NCBI GenBank assembly: GCA_963702845.1
Contig: OY969763.1
Location: forward strand, 4,672,001 to 4,736,000
Direction: 5' to 3'
From: an uncultured Verrucomicrobiae bacterium
Lineage (GTDB): Bacteria > Verrucomicrobiota > Verrucomicrobiia > Limisphaerales > Palsa-1400
Length of the DNA: 64,000 nt
Shown here: positions 42,001 through 51,000 of the stretch, piece after piece
Layout of the letters: the number at the start of each line of letters is the position of its first letter
Position numbering within the stretch: position 1 is the first letter of the stretch
Program-made: the position numbers

Positions 42001-45000
42001 GAACTCACCAACGTCATCGCCGCCATTTCCGCGGAAGCCTCACTGAAATCGCAAAAGCAACTCGATGCATCCAGCACCGCCCAAATCCAACAAGGCGTGC
42101 ACTCATTCAAAAACGGCGTCGGTTGCGCCGAATGCCACCAGTTCCATTCCAAAGACGCCGACGCCTCTGGCCCTGATCTCACCGGCTGGGGTTCGCGTGA
42201 ATGGATCGTCGGCATGATCAGCAACCCCAAATCCATTCACTACTACGCCGAAGACAACGATCGCATGCCCGCCTTCGCCGACGAAAAGATTTTGGACGCA
42301 CAATCAATCGGCTTGCTGGCCGACTGGCTTCGCGGCGAATGGTACGATCCAGCCGAAGCTCGATAACTTTGGAGTTTAGAGCTTTTGCGAAACCAACTAC
42401 GTCCACCAAACGTCTGTTTCAAAAACTCATGCACCGCCTAATAGCTGCCCTCCTCCTGGCAATCGCCTTCGCGCCCAATGTCAGCGCCGCCGCCAAAAAA
42501 CCAAACATCCTCTTCATCTTGTGCGACGACATGGGCTACGAATGTCTGAACTGTTACGGCGGCACTTCCTACAAAACGCCGAACATCGACACCTTGGCCG
42601 CTTCGGGAATTCGCTTTCGCAACGCCTACGCCACTCCGCTCTGCTCGCCGTCGCGTGTTGAGTTGATGACGGGGCGATACGGTTTTCGCACCGGCTGGAT
42701 TAACCTGATCGGGCGCGGCGACGATGCGATGGAATATTTCGAACCGAATAAAGAACGCACCTTCGGCCACGTCTTGAAATCGGCGGGGTACGCCACCGCT
42801 CTCGCCGGTAAATGGCAGCTCTGCAACTTCACCGATCATCCCGATCACGTGAACAAATGCGGCTTCGACGAATACTGCTGTTGGACCTGGCAACTAAACG
42901 GGAAGCGAACCTCCCGTTATTGGGAGCCGTCCATTTGGCAGAATGGCAAAGAAAAGAAAGATCTTCAGGAGCCGTATGGCGAAGATATTTTTTGTAATTT
43001 CCTGATCGATTTCATGAAGCGTCATCGTGACGAACCGTTCTTTGCTTATTATCCGATGGTGCTCGTTCACGAGCCGCACACGGCCACGCCCGACAGCAAA
43101 GGTGCGACCAAAGCCCAAAAAAGCGGCAAAGCCGAGAAGGGCGGCGGCGTGGAAGGTAAGCGCCGACGTGCCACGAAGTTATTTCCCGGCATGGTGCAAT
43201 ACATGGACAAAACCGTCGGACGCCTCATGGCCGCATTGGATGAACTCGGCCTCCGCGACAATACAATTATCGTCTTCACCGGCGACAATGGCACAGATCG
43301 CAGTGTCTTTTCGAAAATTGGCGACGTCACCGTGCAAGGCGGTAAAGGAACGGTCGCTGAATTCGGCACCCACGTTCCTTTCATTGTGAGTTGGAGAGGC
43401 ACGATCAAACCGGCGCAGACCAAAGATGATTTGATCGACTTCAGCGACGTGCTCCCGACCATCGCCGAACTCGGCGGCGCGAAGCTACCCAACGCGACCA
43501 TCGACGGCAAAAGTTTCGCCCGCCAACTAACGACCGAAACCGCACCGGCCCGCCAATGGATTTTCAGTCAACTTGGTCATAAGAAACTCGCGCGCGACCA
43601 ACGTTTCATGCTGCACGACGACGGAAGCATCTACGACGTGATTCACGATCCGTTTGAAAAGAAAAACTTGGCGGACAGCAAAGACGCGGAGGTCACGACA
43701 TCAAAAGCGCGCCTGCAAAAAGTGCTGACGGACCTGCGCTGATTCGCGTGTGGTTCCGGCTTCAGCCGGCATCGTGCGTAACAGGAGATGATTGGAAAAG
43801 GAATTACGGCTTAGCGGCGAGCGGTGCACGCAACGCCATCTTGATCGTCTGAATCAACGTCGACGGCGCGTAAGGTTTCTGCAGAAATTGAAATCCCTCT
43901 GGCAGCGGCAATCCTTTGCACGCTTCATCGTAGCTGTAGCCGGTTGTGAAAACCACTTTCAACTCTGGGTTTTCACCAATGAACTTGTCCGCCAGTTCGC
44001 GCCCGTTCATGCCATCCGGCAGCATCAAGTCGGTCAACAGCAAATCAATCTGTCCCTTCTTCTGAGCCCATTTCTCCAAAGCCATCGCACCCGACGACGC
44101 CTCCACCACCCGGCAGCCGAAACGTTCGAGAACCTTTCGGACCAGTAAGCGCAAAGACTGCTCGTCTTCGACAAGAAACACTGTCGGTGTGTGCATAAAA
44201 ACGGGTTTAAGATAGCAGCGAACGTGCCATTCGCTTGACGGAGAACCGAAAACAAGACCTTGTCAATCAACCACATCGCTCAATCACTGCCACGATTCCC
44301 TGCCCCACCCCAATGCACATCGCGCAAAGTGCGTAACGTGCGTTGGTCCGCTGCAGTTGCCAGGTCGCCGTCGTGATCAACCGCGCCCCGCTCATGCCGA
44401 GAGGATGTCCCAACGCAATCGCCCCGCCTTGCGGATTGATGCGAGGATCATTGTCAGCCAACCCAAGCTCCCGCATAGACGCCAACGCTTGCGAAGCAAA
44501 CGCTTCGTTGAACTCGAGAATATCCATTTGTTCCAGGGACATCTTCAAACGCGCCAAAAGTTTTCGCGTCGCCGGCACCGGCCCAATGCCCATGATGCGC
44601 GGGGAAACACCTGCAGCGGCAACACCCAACACGCGCGCTTTGGGCACGAGATTGAATTGCTTCACCGCCGACTCACTTCCAATCAGCAACCCCGCCGCAC
44701 CGTCATTAATTCCAGATGCGTTCCCAGCCGTGACCGTCCCATCCCGTCGCACGATAGGTTTCAGTTCTGCCAATTTTTCAAGCGTAGTCGCGCGCGGATG
44801 TTCATCACGTTTTACAACGATTGGTTCACCTTTGCGTTGCGGCAAACAAACCGAAATCAGTTCGGCATCGAACAATCCGTTCGCCTGCGCGGTGGCGGCT
44901 TTGGTCTGACTCCAAAAAGCAAACTTGTCCTGGTCTTCGCGACTGATCCCAAATTTCGCCACTAAATTCTCAGCCGTCTCCGCCATCGAATCCGTCCCGT

Positions 45001-48000: not shown

Positions 48001-51000
48001 CCAAGCCAACGCGTCCGCTGCCGGTGTTGTTGCTTACGATCGTCAGATTCTTCGCCCCTCGATCCACTAGTGCATGGATCAACTCAATCGGACTGCCGGC
48101 CTCACCAAACCCGCTGATCATAATCGTCGCGCCATCGTGGATGTCCGCGACGGACGAAGCCAACGACGTTGCGCGTTTGTTAATCATCGCAAGCGCTCCT
48201 GGCAGGTCGCACGTCCTTCGCCGCGGTTGCAGATGCACGGCCTGCCTTTTGTTGTGCGACGTACTTTTCCTGCACGCGGCTCAACTTCTCTTCGATCTGA
48301 TGCAACTCGCCCTCAAAGAAAAACTCCTTCGTATCCAAAGGCACCAACTTATCGACGCGCGTCTCTGTCTCGTCGAACTTCGCGAGGAACACCTTGTCCA
48401 TCCAGGCCATGTTGCGGCTCTCATTGAACTTCAGCGCAAACGCTTTTTGCCCGTTCACCTCCGCCGTGCCCAGGATGGAAAGTTTCCCAGCCGACGTCGT
48501 CATGGTTATGTAACGTGACGGACGATGGAATGACGACAGCGACCGATAAATCAGGTTCGCGACCTTCTCGATGGACGCCAACGGCGCGGTAAAATAGTGA
48601 TATTCGCCCGTGTTGCGTGCGCAATACATCGAATGAAACCGGATGTTCAGCACCGCCAAAATATGCGCGAGATCAACCCAGTTTTGCGCCGAACGCTGCA
48701 CGTCTACCTTGCCGGCCTTGTCCGTATAAAGGCTGACGTGATTCATGATCGGGCTTTGGCTCCGAATGACCACGCCATAGTTCTGCAACCGGCGCATCGC
48801 AGCGAGCGTTGTTGGATTCAATAACTCACGCGGTGTCGAAATGTGAGCCACCCACGAAAGCTGCACGCCATTCTCATGCACCTTCTGGAACAACTTGAGA
48901 ACCTTTTCGTATTTGTTGCTCAAAATCAGTTCCGGTTGAAACGTCAAGGCGCGCGACGCGATACGGATCGTGCGAATGTGCAACAACCGCGGGTCCTCCA
49001 AAATCGGCAAAACATATTGCTCCAGCCGCTCGTATGGAATGTAAGCCGCATCACCGCCGGTGATCAGCAAGTCACTAACTTCCTTGTGCTCGCGCAGATA
49101 CTCGTGGATTTGCGCGATGTCCTCTTGGATGAACATGTCGTGATCACCGCGCACCTGTGCGTGACGGAAACAATACGTGCAAAACGCAAAACAAGTCTGC
49201 GTGCTTTGGTCGAAAACCAATTGCGTCTGCGGATATTTATGCTGACTACCTTCCAGCAACTCGATTCCGCCATTATCCCGTTCAATCCACGGCTTGTTGA
49301 GCAACTGATGCCCGTCGTGTGGATTGGTTTCCTCCATGTATTCGTCAATCACCCGCTTTCGATCCGCCTCGGTCTTCGCAAGCAGATACGCCTCCGTCAC
49401 CTTCTTACGCATCATCGTCGGTTGCGGGAAAACGAGCTGATACATCGGATCATGCTCGTAATCATTCCAATTAATTGTGTTCAGAATGTGCCGCGTCGCC
49501 TTGAACCGGTAAACTTCCACGAACAATTCGCGCTCCGTAATCCGGTCGAGCTTGACCCCATTCTTCGCCAGGATCGCCACCACTTCCCGGAACCCTTGCA
49601 ACTCCGAATACTGCGCGCGGTCATTGAACAAAAACGGGCGCGCTTCCAACAACCCAGAGTGCTGCGGATAAGCTACTTGCAACCGGCTCAGCACACCGTG
49701 CGGCAGAAGATTTTCCGTATCGATGATCGTGCGGACTTCATTCGAATACTCATAACGTTTGAGCATGCCAGCGCGTTGCTCCGCGCTCACCGTCGAACCA
49801 ATGGTCGCCCGGCCGCCCTTTTCGGGCTCAACAGTAGAATTTTTCATTTGGATCGGTTATCTGATTGTTTAGCTACCTAATCAATCATCTGCACCGACCG
49901 CAGCTCGGGCTAACCCTTTATTGCCATTGCTTTGACATAAATTGTCCGCACCAAAAACCCAGGGCCAGTAGGCCAAGTAGCACCCAACCTTGACCACACA
50001 CTGCGCGCTGGATAGCGTCCACGAATTCCTATGCTTTTACTCCGTGCTGCGGTCTCGCTGTTGATTCTTGGTTCGGCATTAGCGTCAGAGAGCGGCGCGT
50101 CGGCGGAAGTTGTGTTGGCGCGATCAAAGCACTCGACGTGGGTTATCGAACCGATTTCTACAAATGTCGCCGGCGTCACGTTTGCGACGGAGGAGTTGCA
50201 AAAATATTTACGGCAAATGGGTGGAGCAAAATTGGCGATCGTTTCAAAGGCCGCTCAACGCAAAGCGATTGTTATCGGGTTGCGTGCCGATTTTCCGACA
50301 GACGTTGAACACGTTTTGCCACCGCAAAAGCCCGGATACGATGGCTATGCAATTTCCATTCGAGACGACGGCATCGTGATCGCGGGCGACAACGGCCCGG
50401 GCTGCATTTACGGCGTCTACGACCTTCTTGAGCATCTCGGCTGCCGCTGGTTTTACCCCACCATCGATCCGAAGGACCCCGAAGTTGTTCCAAAATTTTC
50501 CACCGTCTCACTAAAAACAAATGCATGGGCAATCGCCTCGCCCATTCGCAACCGGATTTGCAACGGGGACGCGTGGTTTTTCGAAATGGATTATTCCGCA
50601 GCGCTCAAGGAAATGGATTGGGCGATGAAGAATCGGTACAACGCAATGGGCTGGCAGGCCGCCGTGAACACCAGCAAACGATCGTTGTTGCAACAATACA
50701 ACGATCTTGGCCGGGCCGGAATCACCAGCGGAATCGAAAAGCGCGGCATGTTCATTCATGGCCCGGCACATTCGTTCGATCATTTTTTGAAATCGGACAT
50801 TTACTTCGCGAAGCACCCCGAATGGTTCGGCATGCGTAACGGAAAACGCGTTCCGCAGGCAGCGCTCGGAGCCCAGTTTTGCTGGTCCAATCCCGAAGCG
50901 CGCGCCCAGTTTATTGCCAACGCGGAGGCGTTCATCACCAATGCGCCCGACATCAAAATTTTTTGCACGGTCCCGTTTGATGGCGGTGTGGCGTGCGATT

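Follow-up and report, generated by a model that had tools for sequence, protein, structure and literature searches.

What does a KamA-like radical SAM enzyme do at the head of an operon that ends in beta-ketoadipate pathway genes? The question is raised by a stretch of 64,000 nucleotides from an uncultured Verrucomicrobiae bacterium, hereafter the window, for which the genome-wide survey's note had proposed a lysine catabolic route through 2-aminoadipate, 3-aminoadipate and 3-oxoadipate.

Results

Organization and conservation of the operon

The operon was borne out as five intact ORFs on the minus strand within positions 44267-49847 (Table 1), with overlaps of 4-8 bases at the gene junctions (stop/start codons). 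CoA-transferase subunit A starts at the ATG at 48187; the GTG start at 48238 in the ORF list is wrong. This is a real operon, composed of a divergent KamA-fold enzyme, a PcaIJ-type CoA-transferase, a beta-transaminase-like enzyme and PcaF. Its flanks in this window contain no lysine gene, transporter or regulator. The promoter and terminator scan yielded no more than in shuffled sequences, and FNR boxes were not enriched upstream of the operon (3/78 versus a 6% background).

Table 1. Genes of the operon (window coordinates)
Gene product	Protein	Position	Strand	Remarks
KamA-fold radical SAM/PLP aminomutase	P0001	48180..49847	-	555 aa; proposed 2-aminoadipate 2,3-aminomutase
3-oxoacid CoA-transferase subunit A, PcaI type	P0002	47477..48187	-	236 aa
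3-oxoacid CoA-transferase subunit B, PcaJ type	P0003	46812..47480	-	222 aa
HemL-like class III aminotransferase	P0004	45469..46815	-	448 aa; proposed beta-transaminase (3-aminoadipate to 3-oxoadipate)
3-oxoadipyl-CoA thiolase PcaF	P0005	44267..45472	-	401 aa

Among 394 aminomutase relatives in genome_contigs (one genome per species), 80 loci were retained for analysis. The complete gene order is present in 54 of the 66 genome loci with room for it, and all four partner genes in 28 of 32 such metagenome loci. Twenty Bacteroidales loci contain CoA-transferase subunit A in 19 cases, subunit B in 20, the aminotransferase in 20 and the thiolase in 18. The operon is indeed kept widely, but its earlier description as conserved across four phyla was an understatement, since 13 phylum labels appear on our tree, a quick tree that also underlies the number of adjacency changes given below. 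Carriers include anaerobic Bacteroidales as well as cultured Shewanella, Photobacterium and Motiliproteus. Four loci (L029, L034, L036 and L044) retain the aminomutase and aminotransferase genes and have no CoA-transferase. A stand-alone aminomutase in Colwellia was considered and rejected, the CoA-transferase A and aminotransferase genes sitting together on another contig.

The aminomutase is a divergent member of the KamA fold

As previously noted, the aminomutase falls below every NCBIfam aminomutase cut-off, with a best score of 69.6 bits against cut-offs of 199-650. It misses TIGR03820 (69.6; cut-off 525.4), TIGR00238 (69.5; cut-off 199.2) and the glutamate 2,3-aminomutase model TIGR04368 (52.7; cut-off 650). 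Its sole PDB sequence match is 2A5H, the lysine 2,3-aminomutase (LAM) of Clostridium subterminale. The predicted model (pLDDT 85.4, poor at residues 232-238) adopts the LAM fold, with a Foldseek E value of 9.4e-13 and, in VIA-align, a Z score of 26.1 (rmsd 3.2 over 317 residues; 11.5 for the runner-up structure). In the CxxxCxxC motif, C219, C223 and C226 align with C125, C129 and C132 of 2A5H, and R228, R295 and K455 with R134, R198 and K337 of LAM. We take K337 to be the PLP lysine of LAM, R134 the substrate-carboxylate arginine, and Asp293 and Asp330 the residues that bind the side-chain amine of lysine; the literature searched returned nothing on these roles. C219, C223, C226, R228, R411 and K455 are invariant in 81/81 aminomutase sequences. 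Cluster motif, PLP lysine, carboxylate arginine and fold all point to a KamA-type enzyme, for which a 2,3-amino shift is predicted.

The two LAM aspartates had been placed at A410 and T448. The first placement does not hold: in four MAFFT modes and in hhalign, Asp293 aligns with R411. The D330 site corresponds to T/S448 (possibly M449), a mapping made at about 20% identity; the narrow family profile (hhalign, hmmsearch) ended at residue 371, and C-terminal positions were mapped via bridging homologues. Both side-chain-amine aspartates are absent, replaced by R411 in all 81 sequences and by Thr or Ser at 448. The corrected mapping of Asp293 to Arg fits a diacid substrate better than the mapping first proposed. 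Many sister KamA-like family members also have Arg at the D293 site, which therefore does not separate adipate from glutamate. For comparison with the Arg and Thr/Ser found here, the clostridial glutamate 2,3-aminomutase has Lys and Asn at the 293 and 330 sites; no TIGR04368 member over cut-off was found in 38 genomes. Active-site residues are identical in amaB-linked and amaB-less carriers. The Atlas search returned only unnamed or generically named clusters. Cluster members, too, bear generic names, and the plasmid contexts of sister families revealed no substrate.

CoA-transferase, thiolase and aminotransferase

Subunit A of the CoA-transferase scores 343 with TIGR02429 (cut-off 128.5) and subunit B 308 with TIGR02428 (cut-off 243.55), although PcaI/ScoA and PcaJ/ScoB models alone do not tell PcaIJ from ScoAB. 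Subunit A is 59-64% identical to subunits from pcaR-pcaIJ(F) clusters versus 52% to one ScoA-type subunit, carries a two-residue insertion as in PcaI and has Arg80 in 73/75 sequences; subunit B shares 63% identity with a subunit of a pcaRIJFBDC operon. Its subfamily scores and its proximity to members of pca clusters place the CoA-transferase with PcaIJ. The thiolase exceeds both PcaF cut-offs (TIGR02430, 681.9 versus 597; PRK09050, 704.6 versus 605), is 63-65% identical to annotated PcaF and is the single tblastn match of its kind in the genome.

The aminotransferase lies below the HemL cut-off (341.4 versus 527.3). Its best PDB matches are 6K8H (408 bits), ForI (379), GSA aminomutase (238) and the beta-transaminases 2YKU/6IZ9 (233). 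R24, R216, K271 and R364 are invariant in 73/73 sequences, and R24, in a GGxxR stretch, and K271 align with 2YKU, 6K8H and ForI; we assume that they play the roles of the N-terminal Arg and the PLP lysine of beta-amino-acid transaminases. The protein thus has the residues of HemL-like class III beta-amino-acid transaminases, and such an activity is predicted.

Genes for 2-aminoadipate formation recur beside the operon

The amaB gene lies within 10 kb of the operon in 9 of the 80 loci, where at most 0.33 were expected, and is absent nearby in the other 71. On the tree this adjacency takes 7 changes, at least 6 of them forced. Seven scanned amaB-adjacent loci pass the cut-off, as does L003; L034 is cut by the contig end. 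The survey's claim that lat and amaB stand beside the operon in one locus was confirmed in L003, where they are divergent from it. LysDH-like genes adjoin the operon in L029, L041 and L060, and AmaA-like genes, below cut-off, in L032 and L071. In 80 metagenome loci, nearby genes include amaB (3, that of L203 assigned by tblastn), SDH (5) and LKR (2); SDH, LKR, the aminomutase and subunit A are all co-directional in L149 and L150. The Lat, LysDH-like, LKR plus SDH and AmaA-like neighbours all lead to 2-aminoadipate semialdehyde. The closest plasmid CoA-transferase (68%) adjoins amaB and a DUF1338 gene. Among four regulator homologues, a gene pair whose last member is amaB lies divergent to one, and an AmaA-like gene to another. 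Downstream genes in L202 are homoisocitrate-dehydrogenase-like and homoaconitase-family.

Gene content of this genome and of other carriers

As reported before, the genome under study encodes Lat and AmaB, about 2.7 Mb from the operon. At a genome completeness of 89.8%, neither acyl-CoA dehydrogenase nor intradiol dioxygenase (PF00775) was found, in agreement with the survey; PcaC and HglS were not found either, and matches to PcaB and PcaD were only distant. A true KamA is present separately, as is lysA (with a local frameshift); LysX was not found.

In 50 carrier genomes picked from the 80, a selection excluding 8 of the 9 loci with amaB nearby, amaB exceeds the cut-off in only 18; lat occurs in 12/51 carriers and a LysDH-like match in 13/51. 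SDH is present in 23/23 carrier Bacteroidales versus 150/278 others (Fisher p 2e-6, an overstated value because kin are not independent), and amaB is not enriched there (8/23 versus 79/278, p 0.48). The amaB-less carriers tested have LKR (5/5) and an AOR-family enzyme (5/5). Ten Shewanella/Photobacterium/Vibrionaceae carriers have no amaB, lat or LysDH-like gene, and weak saccharopine-dehydrogenase-family matches occur in just 4 of the ten; no AmaA over cut-off was found in five carriers of this group. Entry by Lat and AmaB, as first proposed, would be available in this genome but is one among several routes, and some carriers have none. Earlier counts for lat (9/13 with the operon, 34/201 in the order) and for the operon (6/201) were not matched exactly, a new sample of the order giving the aminomutase in 2/251 and lat in 43/251. 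Co-occurrence with lat is weaker than claimed and confounded by kinship, since 4/5 aminomutase-less genomes of the same family have lat.

The idea that the operon strictly takes the place of HglS was discarded: a PF07063 (DUF1338/HglS-family) match occurs in 28/51 carriers, and the operon is therefore no simple replacement of that route. In Shewanella and Photobacterium the DUF1338 gene comes after astC-astA-astD-like genes, and so has no clear lysine link.

Discussion

From the observed genes, their order, families, fold, conserved residues and neighbours, we infer reactions, substrate and direction. The best reading, to which we give a probability of about 0.75, is that 2-aminoadipate is converted to 3-aminoadipate, then to 3-oxoadipate, and finally to succinyl-CoA and acetyl-CoA. 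Recurring 2-aminoadipate-forming neighbours, the PcaIJ/PcaF kind of the last enzymes and the change of Asp293 to Arg all support the conversions to 3-oxoadipate predicted by the survey. Using LAM-like chemistry, the radical SAM/PLP enzyme would move the C2 amino group to C3, yielding 3-aminoadipate, with Arg228 gripping the alpha-carboxylate and Arg411, in the place of LAM Asp293, the distal one. The aminotransferase would produce 3-oxoadipate, PcaIJ would transfer CoA from succinyl-CoA to give 3-oxoadipyl-CoA, and PcaF would split the latter into succinyl-CoA and acetyl-CoA. In sum, 2-aminoadipate, an amino acceptor and CoA would yield succinate and acetyl-CoA, without O2, a redox step or CO2 loss. 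Lysine would enter by Lat and AmaB here, and in other carriers by lysine dehydrogenase, LKR plus SDH, pipecolate oxidase, or uptake. We think it reasonably probable that lysine carbon here has a widespread and so far undescribed fate, redox-neutral and independent of O2, in which a new aminomutase joins any 2-aminoadipate entry to the beta-ketoadipate end steps.

The same genes could instead convert glutamate via beta-glutamate, 3-oxoglutarate and 3-oxoglutaryl-CoA to malonyl-CoA and acetyl-CoA (or to acetoacetate by spontaneous decarboxylation). Glutamate 2,3-aminomutases exist, IdnL4 being proposed as one in the part of PMC11284099 consulted. Any diacid would be suited by the Arg at the D293 site, the products require no acyl-CoA dehydrogenase, and the Shewanella carriers fit because no lysine genes are required. 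We nevertheless consider glutamate an unlikely substrate: it would not explain why amaB, lat, LysDH-like, LKR/SDH and AmaA-like genes have repeatedly and independently come to lie next to the operon, the thiolase exceeds the PcaF cut-offs, and the TIGR04368 score is 52.7 bits versus 650. Some other acidic or uncharged substrate (2-aminopimelate, an N6-modified lysine, a sulfur or sulfonate analogue), the lysine genes then marking amino-acid catabolic islands, seems slightly less plausible still. Many carriers show no known 2-aminoadipate source, and on a Mesorhizobium plasmid the partner of a related aminotransferase (63.5%) belongs to another KamA-like family, so that the logic is reused. However, glutaryl-CoA or branched acyl-CoA products would need the acyl-CoA dehydrogenase not found in this genome, active sites do not differ between amaB-linked and amaB-less carriers, and the recurring neighbours converge on a single metabolite.

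Two further possibilities keep 2-aminoadipate in the scheme. The CoA-transferase might activate 3-aminoadipate first, the aminotransferase then using 3-aminoadipyl-CoA, with the same start and end. Kat, a HemL-like 3-aminobutyryl-CoA transaminase, works on a CoA ester; the CoA-transferase genes sit between those of the aminomutase and the aminotransferase, and a free, labile beta-keto acid would be avoided. This order appears improbable given that the CoA-transferase falls in the PcaIJ clade, that R24 of the aminotransferase aligns with the same Arg of free-acid beta-transaminases, and that the aminomutase and aminotransferase persist in the four loci with no CoA-transferase. A module that works backwards from succinyl-CoA and acetyl-CoA, to 2-aminoadipate for lysine synthesis or to 3-aminoadipate, is very improbable. 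Every step is reversible in principle, and the downstream genes of L202 would suit it, but this genome has lysA, albeit with its frameshift, and no LysX, the neighbour genes are catabolic, and thiolase condensation is uphill.

In line with the survey, we found no publication that describes this route or names 3-aminoadipate in the literature searched, mostly outside subscription journals. Matches to 3-aminoadipate synonyms included, in the portions retrieved, a metabolomics identification (PMC12664060) and a misprinted reference title (PMC9854754), and the retrieved part of a review on aminomutase and lysine degradation topics treats only the clostridial route. If correct, the proposed conversion of 2-aminoadipate would bring a new class of substrate to the few radical SAM 2,3-aminomutases and provide a new lysine/2-aminoadipate breakdown route without O2, B12 or a 2-oxoacid dehydrogenase. 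It would explain pcaIJF in anaerobes without aromatic catabolism, so that these genes should not be taken as proof of aromatic degradation, and would correct annotations such as lysine 2,3-aminomutase or hypothetical protein. It would also provide a short enzymatic path from lysine to 3-oxoadipate; since the latter is an established intermediate on the way to adipate, the enzymes may serve biocatalysis.

Comparison with known systems

The aminomutase resembles KamA/LAM (2A5H) in fold, cluster cysteines, R228, R295 and K455, but shares about 20% identity with it, is ~140 residues longer and has Arg for D293 and Thr/Ser for D330. The operon continues with a transaminase and PcaIJF, whereas the clostridial lysine route proceeds after KamA with a B12 5,6-aminomutase (PMC8473912, in the part seen); neither this enzyme nor Kdd, Kce or Kal is among the five operon genes. 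With glutamate 2,3-aminomutase (TIGR04368) and IdnL4 it shares the KamA family, a diacid 2,3-shift (predicted here) and probably the loss of both aspartates and a basic 293 residue. In those systems the pathway stops at beta-glutamate or uses it as a polyketide starter, whereas here the product would pass to a transaminase, CoA-transferase and thiolase. The best structural relatives of the aminotransferase, by sequence, are HemL-like beta/omega-transaminases (6K8H, ForI 6SSD, 2YKU and 4AO9). Arg23 and Arg207 of ForI, whose natural substrate is unconfirmed in the portion of PMC6927412 consulted, align with the invariant R24 and R216.

The operon shares with the lower beta-ketoadipate pathway a PcaF over cut-off and a CoA-transferase that is 59-64% identical to pca-cluster subunits and has their insertion; in contrast, this genome lacks an intradiol dioxygenase and close matches to PcaB/C/D, and the pathway would be fed by an amino acid, not an aromatic ring. 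The Pseudomonas putida 2-aminoadipate route shares with the present proposal the metabolite of entry and, upstream of it, AmaA/AmaB. As described in the accessible part of the source (10.1101/450254), that route involves AmaA, AmaB, PP_4108, PP_5260/DUF1338 and PP_4493, and C2 transamination and decarboxylation of 2-oxoadipate lead to D-2-hydroxyglutarate, whereas here the amino group would move to C3 and cleavage would follow with no loss of CO2.

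A compact five-gene operon

The proposed 2-aminoadipate 2,3-aminomutase, a radical SAM/PLP protein of KamA fold (P0001), is encoded by the first of five intact ORFs on one strand, with overlaps of 4 to 8 bases at every junction, in agreement with the five-gene operon described in the genome-wide survey's note. The GC content of the operon is that of the window, and its flanks are unrelated, with a response regulator below and a divergent DUF4838 protein above.

Positions of the operon genes and of other features in the window
Feature	Position	Strand	Remarks
Radical SAM protein (P0001), 555 aa	first ORF within 49847-44267	minus	intact ORF
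CoA-transferase A, 236 aa	start ATG at 48187	minus	intact ORF
CoA-transferase B, 222 aa	within 49847-44267	minus	intact ORF
Class III aminotransferase (P0004), 448 aa	within 49847-44267	minus	intact ORF
Thiolase, 401 aa	last gene of 49847-44267	minus	intact ORF
PolX/PHP-like gene	37082-38327		several short ORFs, frameshift-like appearance; named from translations
FAD-linked oxidase gene	35220-36276		several short ORFs, frameshift-like appearance; named from translations
ORF of 4173 codons	3367-15888	minus	

Conservation and distribution

A scan of a one-genome-per-species collection gave 394 confirmed relatives of P0001. Among the best 80 of these 394 loci, CoA-transferase subunits A and B were each found in 74, the aminotransferase in 75 (including a distant match at 32% in L043) and the thiolase in 64. 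Gene order is strictly kept in 54 of the 66 loci having at least 4.3 kb downstream, the 12 others having missing or relocated genes. Metagenome loci with enough room contain all four partners in 28/32 cases, and 20 of the 23 Bacteroidales carriers (genomes with a P0001-like aminomutase) show A in 19, B in 20, the aminotransferase in 20 and the thiolase in 18. The survey's note had followed the operon across four phyla; its range is wider still, with 13 phylum labels on a quick tree of the aminomutase. Carriage is patchy, as had been claimed for the order of this genome (2/251 here), and likewise in Shewanella (17/148) and Bacteroidales (23/301). Cultured environmental strains that have it include Shewanella atlantica, S. 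canadensis, S. marina and Motiliproteus MSK22-1.

Several loci depart from the common layout. B and the aminotransferase are separated by 1.4 kb (L113:7288-8649) and 4.5 kb (L124:11690-16221) in two Bacteroidales operons. L028, L210, L211, L214, L225, L226 and L227 hold only a LysR gene and the aminomutase; in G019, the sole genome of this kind checked, CoA-transferase A and the aminotransferase lie on a separate contig. A Colwellia aminomutase without partners nearby was rejected as a solitary case, its partners lying on another contig of the same genome. In Motiliproteus/Halopseudomonas (L056, L057, L058, L075), PaaI-type thioesterase-like, BCCT-like transporter and PreA-like genes precede the operon and a class I/II aminotransferase gene directly follows the thiolase. 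In L202:15748-21361 the thiolase gene is succeeded by homoisocitrate-dehydrogenase-like, CaiB-like and homoaconitase-family genes. Six Planctomycetota loci (L020, L023, L026, L030, L031, L035) have a member of a tyrosine phenol-lyase cluster in the vicinity of the operon, above cut-off in L023.

Family assignment of the operon proteins

P0001 scores 52-70 bits against six KamA-type NCBIfam models with cut-offs of 199-650, and thus falls, as reported before, under all the aminomutase cut-offs. Its sole PDB sequence match is lysine 2,3-aminomutase (LAM) from Clostridium subterminale (2A5H), which is also the top match, in both Foldseek and VIA-align, of a structure model built from 67 homologues (pLDDT 85.4, poor at 232-238); VIA-align gave Z 26.1 and rmsd 3.2 over 317 residues, the runner-up reaching Z 11.5. 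In a 50%-cluster library one full-length representative matched P0001 at 924 bits and the next at 424, a gap that marks its relatives as a tight separate family. P0001 is predicted to catalyse a KamA-like aminomutase reaction, yet by cut-off and residues it lies outside the lysine and glutamate aminomutase families.

The thiolase exceeds both PcaF cut-offs. With subunits from pcaR-pcaIJ(F) clusters the CoA-transferase shares 59-64% identity, as against 52% with a ScoA-type subunit, and it has the PcaI-type insertion with Arg80. The aminotransferase falls under the cut-off for HemL; among proteins of solved structure, 6K8H and ForI come closest to it, followed by a GSA aminomutase and beta-transaminases. 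Its R24 and R216, invariant in 73/73 sequences, align with Arg23 and Arg207 of ForI as named in PMC6927412. A Mesorhizobium sp. 113-3-3 plasmid (NZ_AP023244.1; L146:6151-11002) encodes an aminotransferase 63.5% identical to P0004, located after a ferredoxin and a KamA-like protein (476 aa, 20% to P0001, likewise with Arg at the D293 site) and before a CoA-transferase of another type, a second aminomutase and beta-transaminase module.

Active site of the aminomutase

Residues were mapped on LAM through bridging homologues, with the same outcome in hhalign (probability 99.85) and in each of four MAFFT modes, the 2A5H numbering being taken via the separate true KamA of this genome (460 bits to 2A5H). 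This KamA (L081:4862-6073; contig C1, ~5372840-5374093) keeps both aspartates and scores 491 for TIGR03820, just below the cut-off of 525. A410, R411 and K455 of P0001 correspond to C292, D293 and K337, and T448 to D330 in an ungapped alignment. The earlier placement of A410 and T448 on the two lysine-binding aspartates holds for T448 if no gap is placed, but is one position off for A410, R411 being the match of D293. The cluster cysteines, R228, R295, R411, R445, M449 and K455 are invariant in 81/81 sequences, Shewanella among them, as had been proposed for the cluster motif, R228, R411, R445 and K455; position 448 is always Thr or Ser. We take D293 to be the site that binds the side-chain amine of lysine, and glutamate 2,3-aminomutase presumably has a Lys/Asn pair at the corresponding sites. 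In parallel with that pair, the Asp-to-Arg change at the D293 site would fit a side-chain carboxylate.

Genes next to the operon

amaB lies within 10 kb of the aminomutase in 9 of the best 80 of 394 loci (seven scanned and above cut-off, L003 also above cut-off, L034 cut by a contig end), against at most 0.33 expected with one copy per genome. This adjacency changes 7 times on the quick tree, at least 6 changes being forced by well-supported branches, and the placement of amaB varies: it directly follows the thiolase in L032 and L046, comes behind the aminotransferase in L029 and L034, and is just upstream in L060. lat adjoins the operon in L003, which has both genes, as the survey's note had described for one locus. 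Lysine-dehydrogenase-like genes, so read from a saccharopine-dehydrogenase-family match, occur in L029, L041 and L060, AmaA-like oxidases under cut-off in L032 and L071, and a PRK06148-type aminotransferase, presumably linked to hydroxylysine, in L048. All these neighbours would also lead toward 2-aminoadipate semialdehyde.

Among 80 metagenome loci, mostly short, amaB was found in 3, SDH in 5 and LKR in 2. In L149 and L150 the order is SDH-LKR-aminomutase-A, in one direction, with a 13-base gap ahead of the aminomutase. SDH is present in 23/23 carrier versus 150/278 non-carrier Bacteroidales, kin that are not independent, and LKR and an AOR-family enzyme both occur in 5/5 amaB-less carriers tested, where the latter could oxidize the semialdehyde. 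GcvA-type LysR genes are found near 21 of the best 80 of 394 loci. Of the 25 plasmid homologues listed for this LysR, four were inspected: one is divergent from a pair of genes of which the last is amaB, one from an AmaA-like gene and two from an acyl-CoA dehydrogenase gene with a CaiB CoA-transferase gene. Among plasmid CoA-transferases the closest (68%, operon-type A/B) is that of Tistrella mobilis pTM2 (L129:1-7391), where amaB and a DUF1338 gene adjoin it and an aminomutase gene is missing. This cluster, which also includes a GcvA-type LysR and an aminotransferase gene, may be a relic, or may have switched to the DUF1338 route.

Metabolic setting and proposed route

As stated in the survey's note, lat and amaB are present in this genome, close to each other; they lie 2.7 Mb from the operon, whose thiolase and CoA-transferase are the only ones of their kind. 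That note had also claimed that acyl-CoA dehydrogenase and ring cleavage are missing, and neither acyl-CoA dehydrogenase, intradiol dioxygenase, HglS nor LysX was found in this assembly, although at 89.8% completeness and with frameshifts elsewhere such absences are not proof. The operon products must then be directly usable, which fits succinyl-CoA and acetyl-CoA, or malonyl-CoA and acetyl-CoA. Elsewhere on contig C1, lysA (2574309-2575580) is interrupted by five in-frame TGA codons close to one another, and the gene for a PRK06148-type aminotransferase (2169402-2170517) is split over frames; both look like assembly indels.

From the genes, their order, the fold, the residues and the neighbours, we infer, with a probability of about 75%, a route in which 2-aminoadipate would be converted to 3-aminoadipate, this to 3-oxoadipate and then to 3-oxoadipyl-CoA, which would be cleaved to succinyl-CoA and acetyl-CoA. 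The net yield would be succinate and acetyl-CoA, without O2, a redox step or CO2 loss.

Part of the genomic evidence speaks against 2-aminoadipate. Among Bacteroidales, carriers show no enrichment of amaB (8/23 versus 79/278, p 0.48). In a set of 50 carrier genomes, drawn from the 80 loci leaving out 8 of the 9 amaB-adjacent ones, amaB is above cut-off in 18, just short in 2 and weaker or partial in 8, three of the latter adjoining lat. lat was found in 12/51 and a LysDH-like match in 13/51 carrier genomes. In ten Shewanella, Photobacterium and Vibrionaceae carriers none of amaB, lat and LysDH-like genes was found; four have a weak saccharopine-dehydrogenase-family match, and AmaA was above cut-off in 0/5 tested. 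Such carriers may import 2-aminoadipate or make it by unrecognised enzymes. The reported co-occurrence with lat stands in that both carriers of the order are among its 43/251 lat-containing genomes, but 4/5 non-carriers of the family have lat too, so it weighs little. A DUF1338-family match in 28/51 genomes implies that the operon often coexists with the 2-aminoadipate route through a DUF1338-family enzyme, known from 10.1101/450254. Short DUF1338 proteins follow astC-astA-astD-like genes in Photobacterium/Shewanella (L133:4535-9263, L134:7148-11934, L135:6886-11794).

Arg at the D293 site also occurs in many members of sister KamA-like families, so that R411 indicates a diacid, but not which one; glutamate would suit it too, and is nevertheless an improbable substrate beside neighbours that point to 2-aminoadipate. 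Some other substrate, a reading open to the carriers lacking recognisable amaB, lat and LysDH-like genes, is a shade less probable. We rate the same way formation of the CoA ester before transamination, which would draw on the same enzymes in another order, set against the PcaIJ-type character of the CoA-transferase. The module operating in the reverse direction, with those genes leading toward the semialdehyde beside it, is very improbable.

Our literature search, which covered few subscription journals, gave no description of the 2-aminoadipate route, as had an earlier one. Its overall logic has a precedent in lysine fermentation, where a 2,3-shift is likewise combined (PMC8473912) with beta-amine removal, CoA transfer and thiolysis; what would be new in the operon is the enzyme specificity and the link that joins two known pathways.
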